Source: a virus. Taken from it: a DNA stretch of 64,000 bases. The stretch's first letter is position 1; each line of letters begins with the position of its first letter. The notes under the pieces were generated by a model that was not told where the DNA came from, made no database searches, and saw nothing but the letters and a program-made list of their open reading frames with translations. Below, piece by piece: positions 35-49,608 of the stretch. The position numbers and the translations under genes are program-made. The stretch lies in the IMG/VR virus record IMGVR_UViG_3300037467_001050, positions 1 to 64,000 of that record; one strand, given 5' to 3'.

Positions 35-1030
35 TCAGATTGCCGCCCTAGGCCGATCCGACTTCTTCAATCCGGCCTTGGCTTCGGCCTCAGCCCTGGC
101 CTTCACCGCCATCACCTCCCTGCGCGCTTCCCGCTCCAGCTGGATCAGCTTGTTCGGGAGGATCTGGAACCAGTTCTTGCCCTCGTCCTTGAGGCGCCCG
201 GCCCAGGCGGCCATGGAGTGCAGCTCTCCGGCGAGGTTGAGGGTCGGGTAGGCCTCCTTCCACTTCGCCCAGTCGGCTTCGTTGAGCTTGATCACGCCGT
301 ACTCGAAGGCGTAGCGGGGCTCGGCCGGAGCCGTCGTGGCAGCTTGGTCCGGCACGACGACGTCAGCAGGCTTTTCCGGCTCGTGCGCAGCCTTGGCGTC
401 CGCGGCCGGGGTCTCGAGCGCCTTGGCCGCGGCCTGCTTCACCGAGAGCCACAACAGGGTGTCGGGATCGTCGCCGGCGACGGCAACATCTTCTTCTCTC
501 CCTCTTCCATCCTTCCTCCTTCCTCCTTCCTCCTCCCTCTGGCAGGCTTCTTCGGAAGCACTTCCGAAGTCCTTCCGAACCACTTCGGAAGTCGGCTTGG
601 TTGAAGGGGCCTTCCTGGTGGAAGTCGGGCCACTTGGAGGACGGCCAGTTCCGCTCCGTGGGCGGTCACCTTCCGAAGTGAGGCCCACATAAACCCACAG
701 GACTTCCGGCAGTGGGTGGATGGTGTTCGGAAGTTTGGGGCGCTGGTACTTGGCGAAGTTCCGAACTGCGCCGTACTGACGGTCGCCCTCGGAGAAAGGC
801 CGGATCATGTTGGCCGTTTCCAGCTCGAGGAGCAGCGCCTGGATGTCGGCGAGCGTCTCGTTCTTGGCCGGACGCAGGCGCATCTTCAGCGTGATCGGCT
901 TCCACTCGAAGATGCCGTTGTCGTCGGCCTCGTTGAGCAGGCCGAGGTAGAGAAGGCTCGCGGCATCGGACAACCCGGCGAAGGCGTCGTCCGTCCAGAG
1001 CCCGGGGTGGATGCTACGGATGCGGGCCAT
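35..1030 (-). CDS. Phage replication initiator (replisome organizer-like)
   Basis: N-terminal MARIRSIHPGLWTDD...LLYLGLLNEADDNG motif typical of lambda-O-like initiators; low-complexity middle containing iteron-like repeats; next to RusA. Confidence 0.75.
   Translation of the reverse strand: MARIRSIHPGLWTDDAFAGLSDAASLLYLGLLNEADDNGIFEWKPITLKMRLRPAKNETLADIQALLLELETANMIRPFSEGDRQYGAVRNFAKYQRPKLPNTIHPLPEVLWVYVGLTSEGDRPRSGTGRPPSGPTSTRKAPSTKPTSEVVRKDFGSASEEACQREEEGGRRKDGRGREEDVAVAGDDPDTLLWLSVKQAAAKALETPAADAKAAHEPEKPADVVVPDQAATTAPAEPRYAFEYGVIKLNEADWAKWKEAYPTLNLAGELHSMAAWAGRLKDEGKNWFQILPNKLIQLEREARREVMAVKARAEAEAKAGLKKSDRPRAAI
551..591. repeat. Iteron-like array inside rep gene, 4 x TTC(C/G)GAA(G/C) at 11-bp period
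   Basis: Cores at 551, 562, 573, 584. Confidence 0.7.
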
Positions 1031-6106: not shown

Positions 6107-6517
6107 CTACTTGTGGGGCGGCGGTGGAGGAGCGAGGGGAGGCGGTGTCGACTCCAGCTCGATGATGCCGGGCTGGATGGCCCCCTCCGGGCCGTAGAGG
6201 TTCAACAGCTTGGTGCAGTTGAGCGGCACGTCCCCGCGCAGGGTGTTCACCTGCTCACGAACGAGGCTCTGGTGGATGGGATTGTCCTTCCACTCCGGGT
6301 AGCCGCCGGAACGGTAGAAGATGTCCCGCGCCATCGGCTTGTTGATCCGCAAGCCGATGCAGTTCTGCTCGACGAAGGTCGACATGGCGAAGACCTGTAC
6401 GTCTGGCCGGGCCTCCTCCAAGGCGGGCAGACGCTGTGCGTGGGCCGTTTGGTCGTAAGCCGCAAACGGCAACACGAGGGCTGCGAGGTAGGCGAGAGCC
6501 GCAATTCTCAAGGTCAT
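6107..6517 (-). CDS. Secreted two-cysteine protein
   Basis: Sec-type signal peptide (AHA); paralog of 16228-16566. Confidence 0.65.
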   Translation of the reverse strand: MTLRIAALAYLAALVLPFAAYDQTAHAQRLPALEEARPDVQVFAMSTFVEQNCIGLRINKPMARDIFYRSGGYPEWKDNPIHQSLVREQVNTLRGDVPLNCTKLLNLYGPEGAIQPGIIELESTPPPLAPPPPPHK

Positions 6518-7020: not shown

Positions 7021-7320
7021 TCATTCCTCGTCATCCTCCTGACTGCCGACCTCACCATGGTCTTCGATGGCGCTCGCCATGTTCCAGGGACCGTGGATCG
7101 TCATGGCCGGAGAGAGGCTGATGTCGGGAAGGTCCGGGTCGTCGTAGCGACGGCCCGTGATCGGCACCTCTTGGTGCATGTCCTCGCGCAGCTCCAGGGC
7201 GTCGTACTTCATCTCCTTGGCGATCCGCAGCGCCTCGGCGGCGCTCCGGGCCTTGATGTACGCCGTAGCGGCGATCTTCACGTCAACGGCGAAAAGGTGA
7301 GGTTCTCTGAAACGCGGCAA
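7021..7320 (-). CDS. Hypothetical protein
   Basis: 99-aa ORF coupled to 6842-7024. Confidence 0.55.
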   Translation of the reverse strand: MPRFREPHLFAVDVKIAATAYIKARSAAEALRIAKEMKYDALELREDMHQEVPITGRRYDDPDLPDISLSPAMTIHGPWNMASAIEDHGEVGSQEDDEE

Positions 7321-43353: not shown

Positions 43354-44892
43354 ATGGCTCAAACTGCAAATCCCGGCCTGTTCTCGGCTGCCTCCGCCTC
43401 GATGTCGGCACGGCGCGCGCTGATGCGCGCGGTCTACGGCGGCACAGAGACCCTGCGCGCCGCACGGGAAACCTACCTGCCGCGCTACGAGAACGAGAGC
43501 CCGACCCGCTACGAGACCCGGCTCGCCGCTGCCACGTCGCTGAACAAGCTCAGGGAGGCCGTCGACGCGGCTTCCGCGAAGCCGTTCAAGACGATGATCA
43601 AGTTGATCAACAACACCGACGCCGATCTCGATCAGTGGGTCCGTGACATCGATCTGACCGGCAACCATCTGCACATCTTCGCCCACCAGCACTTCAACGA
43701 CTCGCTGCTGATGGGGCAGGGGCACATCCTGGTGGATCACCCGACCACCTCGAACATGCCGAACCTCGGCGCTCAGCTCGCCTCAGGCGTTCGGCCGTTC
43801 ATGAAGTACATCCGCGACGACGACCTGCGCGCGGCCTACAGCGAGAACGTCGGCGGCGACATCCAGGTGACGCACGTCCGCATCTTCTCGACCCGCGTGG
43901 AGCGCGAGCCCGGCACCTTCAAGGAGAAGGTCTGGAACCAGATCTACGTGATCGAGAAGGAGGTCGGCGCCAACGCGGGCGTCGTGCAGGTCTGGGAGCA
44001 GGACGCGCAGGCCGGCGGCGACAGCTGGGATCTCATCTCCGAGAGCCCGCTCACCATGCCGGAAGTGCCGTTCGTGACGCTCTACGCGGGCGAGAAGGAG
44101 GGCGACTTCATCACCCGCCCGATCTTCCTCGACTTGGCGCACAAACAGGTGGAGCACTACCAGAGCTCGGCCGACCAGCGCTCGATCCTGTCCGCGGCGC
44201 GCTTCCCCATGCTCGCCGCCTCCGGCATTGAGTTCGACGAGGAGGAGATCTCGAAGTTCACGGTCGGCCCCTACAAGGCGCTGTTCTCCCCCGATCCGCA
44301 GGGCCGCTACTACTACGTCGAGCCGGCCGGACGGGCGATCAAGTCTGGCGCGGACGACCTCGCCGCCATGGAAATCCAGATGGACATGATGTCCCTCAAT
44401 CCCGTGGTCGGCACGCACCGGCAGTACGTGCCCGCCAACGAGCGCGACATCGCCGAGACGCGGGTGCATTCGGTGGTCCACGATCTGGCGCTGTCCGAGA
44501 AGGACGCGCTGGAGCGCGCGATCGGCTTCATGGGCACCTGGGTCAACCGGGACTTCTCGAACGTGGGCGTCGGCCTCAACTCCGACTTCACGAACACGAA
44601 GGACAAGATGATCCAGATGGGCGTCTTGTTGAACGCCTTCACCTCGAAGGCGATCTCGCTCGAGACCTTCCTGGAGCAGGCGCGCCGCCTCGATCTCGTG
44701 GACGACGAGTTCGACGTGAACGCCGAGGTCCAGCGGCTGGCCGCCGCCAACGCGGCGCTCGCGGACGAGGAGGATCCCAACGTCGACAACACCGGCCCGG
44801 TCGCCGGCTCGGCCTCCGACCCGGTACGTGCTTCGACCACGGCCCCGGTGGACTTCCCGAACGGCCGGACCCGCCCTAGATCTCAGATCTGA
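43354..44892 (+). CDS. Portal protein (DUF4055-like)
   Basis: YLPRYENES..RY..RL, follows TerL, 512 aa. Confidence 0.85.
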   Translation: MAQTANPGLFSAASASMSARRALMRAVYGGTETLRAARETYLPRYENESPTRYETRLAAATSLNKLREAVDAASAKPFKTMIKLINNTDADLDQWVRDIDLTGNHLHIFAHQHFNDSLLMGQGHILVDHPTTSNMPNLGAQLASGVRPFMKYIRDDDLRAAYSENVGGDIQVTHVRIFSTRVEREPGTFKEKVWNQIYVIEKEVGANAGVVQVWEQDAQAGGDSWDLISESPLTMPEVPFVTLYAGEKEGDFITRPIFLDLAHKQVEHYQSSADQRSILSAARFPMLAASGIEFDEEEISKFTVGPYKALFSPDPQGRYYYVEPAGRAIKSGADDLAAMEIQMDMMSLNPVVGTHRQYVPANERDIAETRVHSVVHDLALSEKDALERAIGFMGTWVNRDFSNVGVGLNSDFTNTKDKMIQMGVLLNAFTSKAISLETFLEQARRLDLVDDEFDVNAEVQRLAAANAALADEEDPNVDNTGPVAGSASDPVRASTTAPVDFPNGRTRPRSQI

Positions 44893-45489: not shown

Positions 45490-45581
45490 TGGAGCGTAGC
45501 TCAGTTGGTTAGAGCGCTGGCTTACCCCCGGTCTAACGGGGACGCCGGAGGCCACAGGTTCGAGCCCTGTCGCACCATCCA
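45490..45581 (+). ncRNA. tRNA-Asp-like RNA with 22-nt expanded anticodon loop
   Basis: Acceptor TGGAGCG/CGCACCA+T+CCA; D arm GCTC/GAGC; anticodon stem CTGGC/GCCGG; T arm ACAGG-TTCGAGC-CCTGT. Confidence 0.75.
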
Positions 45582-45663: not shown

Positions 45664-45740
45664 TAGGGTGTAGCTCAGCGGTCTAGAGCGCGGGTCTCCA
45701 AAACCCGGTGTCGCAGGTTCAAATCCTGCCTCCCTAGCCA
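45664..45740 (+). tRNA. trnW: tRNA-Trp(CCA)
   Basis: Full cloverleaf; anticodon arm CGGGT-CTCCAAA-ACCCG; encoded 3' CCA. Confidence 0.9.
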
Positions 45741-45779: not shown

Positions 45780-46349
45780 TTGACCACGTACAGCATTTTC
45801 GATCACGGCTCTTGGGAGTCCTACATCAAGCCCGATAGCTTCGGGTCCATCCGACAGATCGGAACCGGGATCGACTGGTACGACTACCGGCAGAATGCCG
45901 CGAACTTCCACGGTGGCGTTCTTGTCACCCTGATGCAGGATTATGCGAACCCGGACGGCTTCCTGTCGGCGGCGCCAAACACCGATGTGTCGATGGTGTC
46001 CCCCTTCGGACGACTGATCGAGATCTTGGACTACGCTGGCTCCACACCTTCCGGTCCCAACAGCGATCTGGCCAACGCTCAGGTCGTCATCAGCGGCAAT
46101 ACCGCGACGTTCACGAAGCCTTACACCCTGACCTCTCGCACGGTTGTGAACCGCATGACCGACGCTGAGATGTACGCCGCCTACATGGCCGACCAGCTGC
46201 AGCCGCTGCGGTCTCGCCTCACAGGGACCGCCGTGCTGCTGACGAGCTTCACGGCACAGAGCGGGACCTCACAGTTCAGCCTGATCAAGGCGGCCTTCGC
46301 CAACCTGTTCGGTGCAGCTCGCGCCGAGACGCTGACAGCGGCCCCGTAG
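45780..46349 (+). CDS. Tail-fibre-assembly-like protein inserted in the tRNA island
   Basis: TTG start with GGAG RBS; DHGSW..Y.P N-terminus and helical C-terminus resemble alphaproteobacterial phage fibre chaperones. Confidence 0.45.
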   Translation: MTTYSIFDHGSWESYIKPDSFGSIRQIGTGIDWYDYRQNAANFHGGVLVTLMQDYANPDGFLSAAPNTDVSMVSPFGRLIEILDYAGSTPSGPNSDLANAQVVISGNTATFTKPYTLTSRTVVNRMTDAEMYAAYMADQLQPLRSRLTGTAVLLTSFTAQSGTSQFSLIKAAFANLFGAARAETLTAAP

Positions 46350-46447: not shown

Positions 46448-46473
46448 TTGACGCCCCAGGTTAGGCCTACCAC
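46448..46473 (+). promoter_or_regulatory. Second candidate sigma70 promoter
   Basis: TTGACG followed by CCTACCAC at -10-like spacing, upstream of the structured RNA block. Confidence 0.4.
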
Positions 46474-46645
46474 CCCCTTCGAGGGGGAACTCGAGCCCTC
46501 GTATGCGGCTCGAGTGGCGGTACTATGGTCGGATTAAGTAGGCGGGGAATTGCGAGGCAAGGAAGGTGGCGAGAGCCCCGGGTTCCGGTGCGAAAGCACG
46601 ACTGGACCGGCCAGACCGACGGGTCGCAAATGGGTGCCAATTCGA
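46473..46645 (+). ncRNA. Candidate structured ncRNA
   Basis: 9-bp stem ACTCGAGCC/GGCTCGAGT; GNRA hairpins GGC-GAGA-GCC and GTGC-GAAA-GCAC closed by TTGCGA/TCGCAA. Confidence 0.45.
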
Positions 46646-46648
46646 GAT

Positions 46649-46745
46649 CGACGACGTGGTGGCTGAGAGGCTGAAGGCACCACAGAAATGGGGCACGGCC
46701 TGCGGGTCGTCGGGGGTTCAAATCCCTCCCACGTCGTCGTTTCCA
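46649..46745 (+). ncRNA. tRNA-Ser-like RNA lacking an anticodon
   Basis: Ser-type D loop, 6-bp variable arm, T arm, G73; anticodon arm 14 nt (CCACA-GAAA-TGGGG); terminal stem extends to 11 bp. Confidence 0.7.
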
Positions 46746-46747
46746 TG

Positions 46748-46824
46748 CCCGGTGTAGCTCAGTCTGGTAGAGCATGTGGTTCATGCCCACGGAGCCGCTG
46801 GTTCAAATCCAGCCACCGGCACCA
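46748..46824 (+). tRNA. tRNA(CAT), Met/fMet/Ile2 class
   Basis: Cloverleaf; TGTGG-TTCATGC-CCACG; C1:C72 mismatch; A73 and CCA. Confidence 0.85.
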
Positions 46825-46941: not shown

Positions 46942-47051
46942 GGGAGGGCATGAGGGCGGAGAGCCCCATCGGGCGCGTCGAGCTGAGCGTGCTCAGCTTC
47001 ACCGGCCCGATGCCTTTTGGCTTGGCGGTGAAAATCCAGCCCCTCCCACCA
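46942..47051 (+). ncRNA. 110-nt tRNA-shaped RNA with long central helix
   Basis: GGGAGGG/CCCTCCC+A+CCA; GGGC/GCCC hairpin; CATCGGGC/GCCCGATG and AGCTGAG/CTCAGCT stems; TGAAAAT T-loop-like. Confidence 0.6.
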
Positions 47052-47056
47052 GTTTC

Positions 47057-47140
47057 GAGTGAGATGCCCGGGTGGACGGGCGGGAGGCTGTAACCCTCCT
47101 GGCTATGCCGTGGTGGGTTCGAGCCCTGCCTCACTCACCA
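47057..47140 (+). tRNA. trnY: tRNA-Tyr(GTA)
   Basis: GAGTGAG/CTCACTC+A+CCA; GGAGG-CTGTAAC-CCTCC; long variable arm. Confidence 0.9.
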
Positions 47141-47387: not shown

Positions 47388-47578
47388 GGCTCATTCAATC
47401 CCCATCGCGCTCCCGGCTCATCCCCGGTTGAGCGCGATCGCGACGGCCCCAGCCTGCAGCATCCCCGGCACAAGACGGGCAGGGATACCAAAGAGCGCGC
47501 CCCCGCACCTCGCGCCGCCGTCCATCGATCGCGAACCGGCTCCAAGACCGCGTCGCGTCGGCCCATAGGCCGCCACTG

Positions 47579-47606
47579 AGCCCCGGCTTCGCGCCGGGGC
47601 TTTTTT
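47579..47606 (+). terminator. Intrinsic terminator
   Basis: AGCCCCGGC-TTCGC-GCCGGGGCT followed by T tract. Confidence 0.85.
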
Positions 47607-47626: not shown

Positions 47627-48559
47627 ATGCCTGATCGTATTTCCGGGATGGAAATGGCACTTCACGCAATTGTCACCGACATCAATACTGTTCCCGAAGC
47701 ACTCCGCACCGAATACACCGAGAAGGACGGGAAGTTCTTCCTCAATGTAGAGCCGGTCGACGGGTTCAAGCTCGAGAACGTGGATGGGCTCGTCAACGCC
47801 CTGAGCGCCGAGCGCACCCTCAAGGACCGAGCCGAAGCTGCTCTCAAGCAGTTCAAGGACATCGATCCGAAGACCGCGCGCTCCGCCATCGAGGCGATCA
47901 CCGCCTACGGTGACCTCACCCCGCAGCAGGTCCAGGCCCTCCAAGAGGAGGTCGCCAATCTGCGCGCCATCGACCCGACCAAGGAAGCCGGCAAGCTCGC
48001 CGAGGCCCAGGTCAGCGCTGCGGTCGCCGCCGCCAAGGCTGAAGCCGAGCGCGTGTTCGGCACCGAGAAGACCACGCTCGCAGAGCAGCTCAACGGCCTC
48101 ACGGCGCTCAACGAGGGCCTGAAGGGTCAGCTCAAGGATCTGCTCGTCGGCAATCAGGTGAAGGCGGAAATCGCCCGCCTGAAGGTCGTGCCCGGCCTCG
48201 AGCCGGCCGCCGAGATGCTCGCCTCCCAGTCGATCCGCACGGTCGAGAAGGACAACGCCTTCCAGGTCGTGGTCATCGACAAGGACGGCAACCCGCGCAT
48301 GAAGCTCGGCGAGAACAACTCGCTCGTGCCGTTCACGGTCACGGACCTGATGGACGAGCTCAAGAAGACCACCCCCGGCCTCTTCCAGGCGGAAGACAAG
48401 GGCGGTGTTGGCATCCAGCCCGGGCGTCACGCTCCGGGCACCGGGGGCATCTCGAACCCCTGGTCGAAGGAGGCCTGGAACCAGACGGAGCAAGCCAAGC
48501 TCCGGCTCTCGAACCCCACCCTAGCCGCTCAGCTCAAGGCCCAGGCCGGCGTCTCCTGA
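47627..48559 (+). CDS. Capsid scaffolding protein (start may be 47654)
   Basis: Coiled-coil; NPWSKEAWNQTEQAKL C-terminus; precedes MCP. Confidence 0.8.
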   Translation: MPDRISGMEMALHAIVTDINTVPEALRTEYTEKDGKFFLNVEPVDGFKLENVDGLVNALSAERTLKDRAEAALKQFKDIDPKTARSAIEAITAYGDLTPQQVQALQEEVANLRAIDPTKEAGKLAEAQVSAAVAAAKAEAERVFGTEKTTLAEQLNGLTALNEGLKGQLKDLLVGNQVKAEIARLKVVPGLEPAAEMLASQSIRTVEKDNAFQVVVIDKDGNPRMKLGENNSLVPFTVTDLMDELKKTTPGLFQAEDKGGVGIQPGRHAPGTGGISNPWSKEAWNQTEQAKLRLSNPTLAAQLKAQAGVS

Positions 48560-48621: not shown

Positions 48622-49608
48622 ATGGCTATTGAGATCACCCAGCTCAAGGACATGATCGTCCCGGAGGAGTGGAACTCCTACATCGAGCTGACCACGACCC
48701 AGAAGAGCGAACTGTTCACCTCGGGCATCGTCCAGGATCTGTCGGCGGAAGTCGGCAATCAGCTGGAAGGCCCGCTGGTCCACATGCCCTACTTCGACGA
48801 CCTCGACAGTGACGACGATCACGAAGAGCAGCAGCTCGACGACGAGGACGACATCGTGGTGGACGGCATCACCACGGGCATGGACGTCGCGGTCAAGACC
48901 GCGCGCGCCAAGTCCTTCGGTTCGACCGACCTCGCCGCCGACCTCTCGGGCGCCGACCCGATCGCCGCGATCCAGAACAAGTTCGCTGGCTGGTGGGCCC
49001 GTCGGTACCAGACCGCTCTGCTCTCCGTGCTCGAGGGCGCGATGGGTTCGGTCGGTATGGAGTCCAACGTGCTCGACATCTCCGGCCTGACCGGCGATGC
49101 CGCGAAGTTCGCGCCTGTCCCCTTCGTCGAGGCCGCGTTCCTCCTGGGTGACGCCGCCGGTGGCCTGACCGCCCTGGCCGTCCACAGCCAGACGCTGAAG
49201 TCGATGGTCCTGGCCGACATGATCACGGTCGTGAAGGACTCGACCACGAACCTCGACATCCCGACGTACATGGGCAAGCGCATCATCGTCGACGACTCCA
49301 TGCCGGTCACCGGCACGGGCGTGGACCGCGTCTACACCAGCTACCTGTTCGGGCCGGGCGCCATCGGCTACGCCACCAAGCCGCTGAAGGTGCCGGTCGA
49401 GGTGGGCCGCAACGCCCTCAAGACCATGGGTCAGGACTACGTCGTCAACAGGAAGCAGTGGGTGCTCCACCCGCGCGGCATCGCCTGGAAGGGCAATGCG
49501 GTGAAGAAGTCCGGTCCGGTCAACGCCGAGCTCAAGAACCCGGCCAACTGGAACCGCGTGTACGACCACAAGCTGATCCGGCTCGTGGCGTTCAAGCACA
49601 AGAACTAA
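48622..49608 (+). CDS. Major capsid protein
   Basis: TQLKDMIVPE, SELFTSGIV, MPYFDDL, LHPRG..W, NW.RVYD.KLIRLVAFKH. Confidence 0.9.
   Translation: MAIEITQLKDMIVPEEWNSYIELTTTQKSELFTSGIVQDLSAEVGNQLEGPLVHMPYFDDLDSDDDHEEQQLDDEDDIVVDGITTGMDVAVKTARAKSFGSTDLAADLSGADPIAAIQNKFAGWWARRYQTALLSVLEGAMGSVGMESNVLDISGLTGDAAKFAPVPFVEAAFLLGDAAGGLTALAVHSQTLKSMVLADMITVVKDSTTNLDIPTYMGKRIIVDDSMPVTGTGVDRVYTSYLFGPGAIGYATKPLKVPVEVGRNALKTMGQDYVVNRKQWVLHPRGIAWKGNAVKKSGPVNAELKNPANWNRVYDHKLIRLVAFKHKN

Follow-up and report, generated by a model that had tools for sequence, protein, structure and literature searches.

A non-decoding derivative of tRNA-Ser(CGA), truncated by three nucleotides in its anticodon loop, in the RNA island of a soil phage

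A soil phage carries, within an island of RNA genes next to its capsid genes, a tRNA-Ser-like element from which exactly three nucleotides of the anticodon loop are missing. The element is certainly a derivative of an alphaproteobacterial-type tRNA-Ser(CGA) that is unable to decode: it has no anticodon and U33 is absent. The three missing nucleotides and the inability to decode had been put forward in a preliminary description made from the sequence alone. We estimate at about 0.5 the probability that it is a retained non-decoding tRNA look-alike, one of three in the RNA island of this phage, because its lesions are confined, its tRNA body is untouched, two siblings adjoin it and the design recurs in other phages.

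The phage record (IMG/VR) is 122,894 bp long, has a G+C content of 64.6% and is rated complete; the window, i.e., the whole stretch of DNA that was analysed, is its first 64 kb. The nearest cultured relative is Bradyrhizobium phage BDU-MI-1, whose terminase is 67% identical. A search for the host with the attP region returned matches of about 70-76% only, probably to the integrase, and the host genus was not confirmed in this way. The Ser-like element lies inside a 2.7-kb RNA-rich interval with the portal gene on one side and the scaffold and major capsid genes on the other (Table 1). It is probably co-transcribed with the tRNA(CAT) gene that follows it. The nearest bodies to that of tRNA(CAT) are those of cellular tRNA-Pro(UGG/CGG), at 74-77%; C1 and C72 are mismatched and position 73 is A, and the gene looks like a proline-type body with a methionine/isoleucine-type anticodon. 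The noncoding stretch at 47396-47527, just upstream of the scaffold gene, is 74-83% conserved in at least 12 related phage or prophage loci, which include BDU-MI-1 and two Bradyrhizobium contigs and in which the adjoining tRNA cargo varies; weak sRNA-type Rfam matches overlap its 3' side, and it may be a leader or a small RNA.

Table 1. Features of the RNA island and its flanks, with the parts of the Ser-like element (positions in the window)
Feature	Coordinates	Strand	Remarks
Portal gene	43354-44892		
Asp-like look-alike gene	45490-45581	+	tRNA-Asp-derived; 15-nt insertion only in the anticodon loop, from alignment with two cellular tRNA-Asp(GTC) genes
tRNA-Trp	starts at 45664		in the RNA island, after the Asp-like gene
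Island ORF, 189 aa	45780-46349		between tRNA-Trp and the structured noncoding stretch
Structured noncoding stretch	about 46465-46642		directly before the Ser-like element in island order
Ser-like element, 5' leader	46649-46652	+	pairs with 46736-46739, extending the acceptor helix to 11 bp; fold and 37-gene survey
Ser-like element, core from G1 to G73, 84 nt	46653-46736	+	RF00005; ARAGORN; 74-82% identity to cellular tRNA-Ser(CGA)
Ser-like element, truncated anticodon arm	46680-46693	+	C32, U33 and C34 absent; three-column alignment gap and register energies
Ser-like element, long variable arm (class II hallmark)	46695-46710	+	46695-46700 with 46705-46710; 6 bp, 4-nt loop
Ser-like element, T arm	46712-46728	+	within 21 nt identical to the closest cellular tRNA-Ser(CGA)
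Ser-like element, 3' trailer and spacer to the next tRNA	46737-46747	+	no CCA after G73
Canonical tRNA(CAT)	46748-46824	+	RF00005, 59.9 bits; ARAGORN; 11 nt downstream of the Ser-like element
Tyr-like look-alike RNA	46942-47051	+	CCA-ended, tRNA-shaped; helix of ~20 bp replaces the anticodon arm; fold and sequence
tRNA-Tyr (real)	47057-47140		adjoins the Tyr-like RNA
ORF, 73 aa			between tRNA-Tyr and the terminator
Intrinsic terminator, strong	47578-47602	+	ends the RNA island ahead of the scaffold gene
Scaffold gene	47627-48559		
Major capsid gene	48622-49608		

The Rfam model RF00005 matches positions 46653-46736 with 36.7 bits, above its gathering score of 29 (E value of 2e-7 for the whole phage), and the deviation of the element from the model is limited to the anticodon and the variable region. 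The tRNA-Ser-like features that the preliminary description had recognized at this place are thus present. The cloverleaf consists of a 7-bp acceptor stem (46653-46659 with 46729-46735), U8 and G9 (46660-46661), a 3-bp D stem with an 11-nt loop (46662-46664 with 46676-46678), A26 (46679), a 5-bp anticodon stem that includes an A29.G41 mismatch (46680-46684 with 46689-46693) and is closed by the loop GAAA (46685-46688), the long variable arm, the T arm and G73 (46736). The universal tertiary nucleotides are all present, with U8, A14, GG and TTCAAAT kept. CCA is not encoded, and in the precursor G73 is paired with position -1. A CCA triplet is found at 46743-46745, 6 nt past G73 in the 11-nt spacer before tRNA(CAT), and its presence there may be coincidental.

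ARAGORN calls the element 'tRNA-?(Ser|Phe)(ga)', with a 6-nt loop that is obtained through a shifted register and that spoils the D stem. The register dictated by homology, in which the anticodon arm is capped by GAAA as initially described, has a predicted energy of -31.4 kcal/mol versus -27.8 kcal/mol for the ARAGORN register, and is thus better by 3.6 kcal/mol. Both are populated in the predicted ensemble (0.53 for the GAAA cap and 0.33 for the 6-nt loop). The 7-nt loop, U33 and three-base anticodon of a canonical tRNA are absent from the element, and the alternative 6-nt register is also without U33. The truncated anticodon arm is weak, at -2.1 kcal/mol versus -6.4 kcal/mol for the arm of cellular tRNA-Ser(CGA), and, mismatched as it is, lacks the reinforcement that is present in both sibling look-alikes.

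A BLAST search of 201 genomes of the Bradyrhizobium order returned eight best matches that are all tRNA-Ser(CGA) genes (E value of 1.8e-12); 73 nt of the Ser-like element align to 76 nt of the cellular target. When the element was aligned by MAFFT with nine cellular tRNA-Ser(CGA) genes, the sole gap comprised three columns opposite C32, U33 and C34, which confirms the loss of exactly three nucleotides. Relative to the closest cellular gene, 20 substitutions are found in 84 aligned positions. The 10 substitutions in stems are arranged as five double changes over the four standard stems and leave one broken pair: Watson-Crick swaps at acceptor positions 2:71, 3:70 and 5:68, one double change in the D stem that gives U.G, and the double change at 29:41 that gives the A.G mismatch. 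When 10 random substitutions were placed in 40 stem positions, one or no broken pair was obtained in 2 of 10,000 trials (2e-4). The variable arm differs from that of the cellular gene by 9 substitutions, with its six pairs still formed. Together, the paired stem changes, the unchanged T arm and the kept tertiary nucleotides suggest that the body evolved under structural constraint.

The changes that damage the element as a tRNA are located elsewhere. In the anticodon arm, these are the C32-U33-C34 deletion and the 29:41 mismatch; at the 3' end, G73-CCA has become G73-TCG, with CCA encoded by every one of the five remaining tRNA-type genes in the island. Roughly 50 constrained positions of the body carry no lesions. 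We infer that the placement of the lesions, in these two regions only, is non-random (rough p of 0.01-0.05). The overall divergence from cellular homologs, at about 80% identity, resembles that of the working tRNAs of the island, and the compensatory changes may therefore all predate the deletion.

The acceptor helix of 11 bp noted in the preliminary description is real (46649-46659 with 46729-46739), with the new 3' bases pairing with the 5' leader; its strength as a signal did not hold up. Cellular tRNA-Ser(CGA) genes commonly pair -1:73 and -2:74 already (loci L226, L235, L240 and L242), so the phage helix extends only ~2 bp beyond the usual. In a survey of cellular tRNA genes of the Bradyrhizobium order, 9 contiguous acceptor pairs were present in 13 of 37. 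An extension by 1-2 bp being normal among cellular homologs, we rejected the 11-bp helix as a strong signal; pairing of -1 and -2 in precursors should be allowed for before an extended acceptor helix is called unusual.

Two neighbours of the Ser-like element are altered at the same place. The gene at 45490 corresponds to a cellular tRNA-Asp(GTC) into which a hairpin has been inserted in the anticodon loop only, with the acceptor stem rewritten and the discriminator changed, and the RNA at 46942 is predicted to fold as a cloverleaf with a long helix where the anticodon arm would be. There are thus three tRNA-shaped genes (Asp-, Ser- and Tyr-like) altered at the anticodon within 1.65 kb. Such a trio is hard to explain by three independent decays, each at the anticodon, with the caveat that look-alikes damaged outside the anticodon would have gone unnoticed.

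Similar truncations occur in unrelated phages. In a 38-kb Mu-like contig (L246), GAAA directly caps the stem of a Ser-type gene whose alignment to the Rfam model has an identical gap of three positions. In a 65-kb phage (L302), a Ser(CGA)-type gene with a 6-nt loop, i.e., with 1 nt missing, is located right after a real tRNA-Ser(UGA); here, too, real tRNAs and look-alikes altered at the anticodon share one island. Both truncations affect the same 5' side of the anticodon loop and leave GAAA, as in the Ser-like element, and A2:U71 is found in all three genes. A search for kin with the L246 example retrieved only itself. These sequences are independent singletons; they show recurrence of the design and do not amount to evidence of a conserved family. 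Further irregular genes were seen at these loci. The L246 example is one of two tandem irregular Ser-type genes downstream of a transposition ATPase gene (L246:5749-5962, minus strand), neither of which encodes CCA; the second is Ser(GCU)-like and has a poorly paired anticodon arm. The L302 cluster (L302:6100-7500) also contains a tmRNA and two over-long matches to the tRNA model (6182-6282 and 7205-7295). In a 252-kb phage with a 20-tRNA array (L300), there is a tRNA-shaped RNA at ~642-700 (minus strand) with a long anticodon-arm helix capped by GCAA; sub-threshold matches to the YrlA model are located at 495-628 and 2692-2829 of this locus (43.7 and 32.2 bits versus a cut-off of 69).

The preliminary description had suggested examining covariation in homologs, and none with the same deletion was retrieved from the IMG/VR pattern scans, the genomes or the relatives compared. 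IMG/VR contained no match to an exact or degenerate pattern running from the D loop to the anticodon arm; an acceptor-stem pattern gave 30 matches, none of them a tRNA, and patterns combining the T loop with a capped stem retrieved unrelated examples only. By BLAST, the 201 genomes of the Bradyrhizobium order and 27 genomes of the best-matching family contained normal tRNA-Ser(CGA) only. Relatives found through their portal, capsid and scaffold proteins do not have the Ser-like gene, these relatives excluding the contigs of scaffold homologs P0002 and P0004-P0006, which are the closest ones (scaffold 54-59% identical). Only one copy of this disabled gene is therefore known from the IMG/VR pattern scans and the genomes and relatives compared.

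When the island was compared by BLAST with 2.2 Mb of relatives and other fetched loci, conservation was limited to the island flanks. At the same site, BDU-MI-1 and two Bradyrhizobium contigs carry tRNA-Asn; a 152-kb metagenomic relative (L147) carries Leu, Ser, Ser and Phe tRNAs between portal and scaffold, and other relatives carry none. Since the tRNAs of the relatives differ and only the island flanks are conserved, the site appears to be a cargo slot with fast turnover. Some of this cargo is itself irregular. One of the L147 genes (L147:6291-6377) is a tRNA-Ser(CGA) with a D arm of the Sec/allo type (5-bp stem, small loop) and a 4-bp T stem, which is not scored by the general tRNA model and is matched by RF01852 only, at 25.8 bits. 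In BDU-MI-1, a CCA-ended tRNA of the Glu/Arg type (L013:1501-1577; KY940711 114085-114158) has an anticodon arm that is one base too long and that fits two drawings, one with 6 bp in the stem and 6 nt in the loop, the other with 5 bp and 8 nt.

What the element could still do depends in part on whether it can be charged. Serine identity does not depend on the anticodon and resides chiefly in the variable arm, with further determinants in G73 and the acceptor stem (PMC9976931), in agreement with the earlier statement that SerRS recognizes the former and not the anticodon, in this case the variable arm. From this recognition, the preliminary description proposed that the RNA could be serylated, to serve as a seryl donor or as a sponge for SerRS and EF-Tu. 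The element does keep its long variable arm and G73, along with G1:C72 and C11:G24. In such a scheme, host processing and CCA addition would be followed by charging by SerRS through the variable arm and G73, and the product would sequester SerRS or EF-Tu or donate serine to a non-ribosomal transferase. However, in most bacterial tRNA-Ser the conservation of G1:C72 and G2:C71 is described as absolute (PMC9976931), and only the first of these two pairs is kept here, 2:71 being A:U; 3:70 is C:G, and positions 1-3 are GGA in 9 of 9 cellular homologs. On sequence grounds, serylation is doubtful because CCA is lost, G73 is paired and G2:C71 has been replaced by A:U; charging would be possible only after processing in the host, and its efficiency would probably be low. 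In addition, profile searches of the phage revealed no class II synthetase (SerRS-type) core, no CCA-adding enzyme and no members of the FemAB, LPG synthase (MprF-type) or L/F aminoacyl-tRNA transferase families, which leaves the donor and sponge proposals unsupported, and we regard a seryl carrier as very unlikely. An assembly or sequencing artefact hiding a true 7-nt loop is barely credible, since the deletion is accompanied by independent changes (29:41, the loss of CCA and 2:71) that would not arise from an assembly slip. We give as little credence to a decoder of two-base codons that would shift the reading frame by means of the 6-nt register. ARAGORN does propose this loop with 'ga', and it accounts for about one-third of the predicted ensemble; against it, the D stem is broken in this register, the energy is worse by 3.6 kcal/mol and U33 is missing, and a review of non-canonical tRNAs contains no functional 4- or 6-nt anticodon loop (PMC7609411).

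The weightiest alternative, which the preliminary description had not weighed, is an inert pseudogene of recent date, i.e., a phage tRNA-Ser(CGA) that was knocked out by the 3-nt deletion and then acquired a few further changes (position 41 and CCA), its intact body being a relic of its past life as a tRNA. We consider this quite possible, at somewhat less than an even chance. It would agree with the singleton status of the element among the IMG/VR scans and relatives compared, with the hypervariable cargo site and with a small deletion being the simplest inactivating event. The absence of a homolog with the same deletion, the variable cargo, the weak and mismatched anticodon arm and the loss of CCA in this gene alone of the tRNA-type genes of the island all speak against retention. 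A divergence like that of working tRNAs, with all compensatory changes possibly preceding the deletion, is likewise what a pseudogene would show, and the annotation of BDU-MI-1 includes a tRNA pseudogene. On the other hand, at least 3-4 tRNA-damaging changes have accumulated with none in the body, indicating that the inactivation is not brand new; two other look-alikes altered only at the anticodon lie within the same 1.65 kb; and truncation on the 5' side of the loop is also seen in Ser-type genes of two unrelated phages. These observations lead us to prefer a retained look-alike.

If the element is retained, the Ser-like RNA would still be made, together with the neighbouring tRNAs, and would act through its tRNA shape and not through decoding nor, probably, aminoacylation. 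Most likely, it would engage a host protein with affinity for class II or serine tRNAs, a candidate target being a tRNA-cutting defence or toxin nuclease of the VapC type. VapC-type enzymes cut tRNA-Ser at the G35-A36 step (PMC10264068); this step is kept in the Ser-like element, inside the closed tetraloop. Real tRNAs of the phage and the host would thereby be spared, with an RtcB repair ligase alongside. The nuclease decoy mentioned in the preliminary description would be the most plausible active role. We propose a trans-acting competitor or decoy tentatively, as one share of the retained look-alike reading and with odds well short of even. A more specific version appears unlikely to us: a decoy made from a class II tRNA, with a GAAA-capped loop and with G2:C71 changed to A:U so as to block charging, that would soak up an enzyme directed at tRNA-Ser (a VapC-like nuclease or a MenT/AbiE-like 3'-end modifier) as part of the Asp/Ser/Tyr trio combined with RtcB repair. 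A cis-acting RNase P handle for the flanking RNAs would be a less likely variant.

Enzymes of the RtcB type reseal tRNAs after anticodon nucleases have cut them. An RtcB RNA ligase gene of the phage is located outside the window, at positions 111162-112568 of the record on the minus strand (L279:7163-8569; PF01139, 98.8 bits); its neighbours are a class II ribonucleotide reductase, a YqaJ recombinase-type nuclease and an RNase T-family exonuclease. No TROVE/Ro60 protein, RNA ligase PF09414 or tRNA-intron (splicing) endonuclease was found in the phage, and no peptidyl-tRNA hydrolase, PF01981 (Pth2) and PF01195 (Pth) being without a match anywhere. As a binding partner for the Ser-like RNA, the candidate ORF of the island (45780-46349) has no match in Pfam, PHROG or Atlas, and its AlphaFold model has a pLDDT of 38. 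Two other ideas were rejected: an attP fragment, as the Ser-like gene, unlike L245, is a complete cloverleaf, and a GAAA receptor, for which the motifs are at chance level (by eye only).

Compared with cellular tRNA-Ser(CGA) of Hyphomicrobiales (e.g., L235), the element has in common the cloverleaf, the variable arm, G73, G1:C72 and C11:G24; it differs in having no anticodon or U-turn, a mismatched 29:41 and no encoded CCA, in the replacement of G2:C71 and A3:U70, and in a helix that runs 4 bp into the flanks. Eukaryotic mascRNA and the viral tRNA-like RNAs of MHV68 are tRNA-shaped processing handles. The element resembles them in being tRNA-shaped and non-decoding and in adjoining a structured RNA that RNase P could release, but a precursor in which -1 to -4 are paired with 73 to 76 would not be a favourable substrate for RNase P, and assignment to mascRNA was rejected (RF01684, 23 bits versus a cut-off of 42.5). 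Assignment to tRNA-Sec (8/5, 6-bp D stem, UCA) was rejected as well: the element has a 3-bp D stem, an 11-nt loop and no anticodon, and no RF01852 match is listed at the locus. Y RNAs of the YrlA type (RF02553) are non-decoding, mimic the D arm, T arm and acceptor of tRNA, and are found in phages and near RtcB operons; their topology is reversed, with the RNA ends at the place of the anticodon arm forming the Ro60-binding stem and the 'acceptor' being a closed hairpin (PMC4201824). The YrlA model was rejected at 25.4 bits versus a cut-off of 69, with a match that is mis-registered across two genes and no TROVE gene in the phage.

Allo-tRNAs and irregular tRNA polycistrons from soil metagenomes have 8/4 or 9/3 acceptor/T stems and 7-nt anticodon loops (Mukai et al. 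2017, via PMC7609411); some are non-functional in translation, and a link to mobile elements or toxin-antitoxin systems has been proposed (PMC7609411). Like the element, they have a class II body of the Ser type, and their anticodon does not fit serine. The element was nevertheless rejected as an allo-tRNA, being of the 7/5 type (7-bp acceptor by homology, 5-bp T stem) with a 4-nt loop. We found no natural 4-nt anticodon loop described (PMC7609411).

The current view of phage tRNAs is mainly that they stand in for host tRNAs which immune nucleases have destroyed. Nuclease-resistant phage tRNAs rescue translation from tRNases of the PARIS, retron Ec78, P2-OLD, VapC and PrrC types (PMC10264068, PMC11464382, PMC11555353, PMC12445682), and in the published phage-host tRNA conflicts (the same four papers and PMC13056530) the anti-defence phage tRNAs all still decode; competitor action was not found among them. 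Like these tRNAs, the Ser-like element is encoded by a phage, belongs to a tRNA cluster and has a changed anticodon arm; its phage has RtcB besides. It has no functional anticodon with which to replace a cleaved host tRNA, and, unlike tRNAs that act by decoding, could act only as a competitor. Should it prove to be merely a dead tRNA, it would be a caution that an intact-looking body reflects recent history and that single-copy 'mimics' of variable tRNA islands are not to be over-read. If functional, it would be a new form of tRNA mimicry. Three such RNAs, each of a different identity and all in the same operon, would keep the tRNA body while giving up decoding, a tactic other than tRNA replacement: RNA mimicry aimed at tRNA-binding enzymes, an idea that is directly testable.
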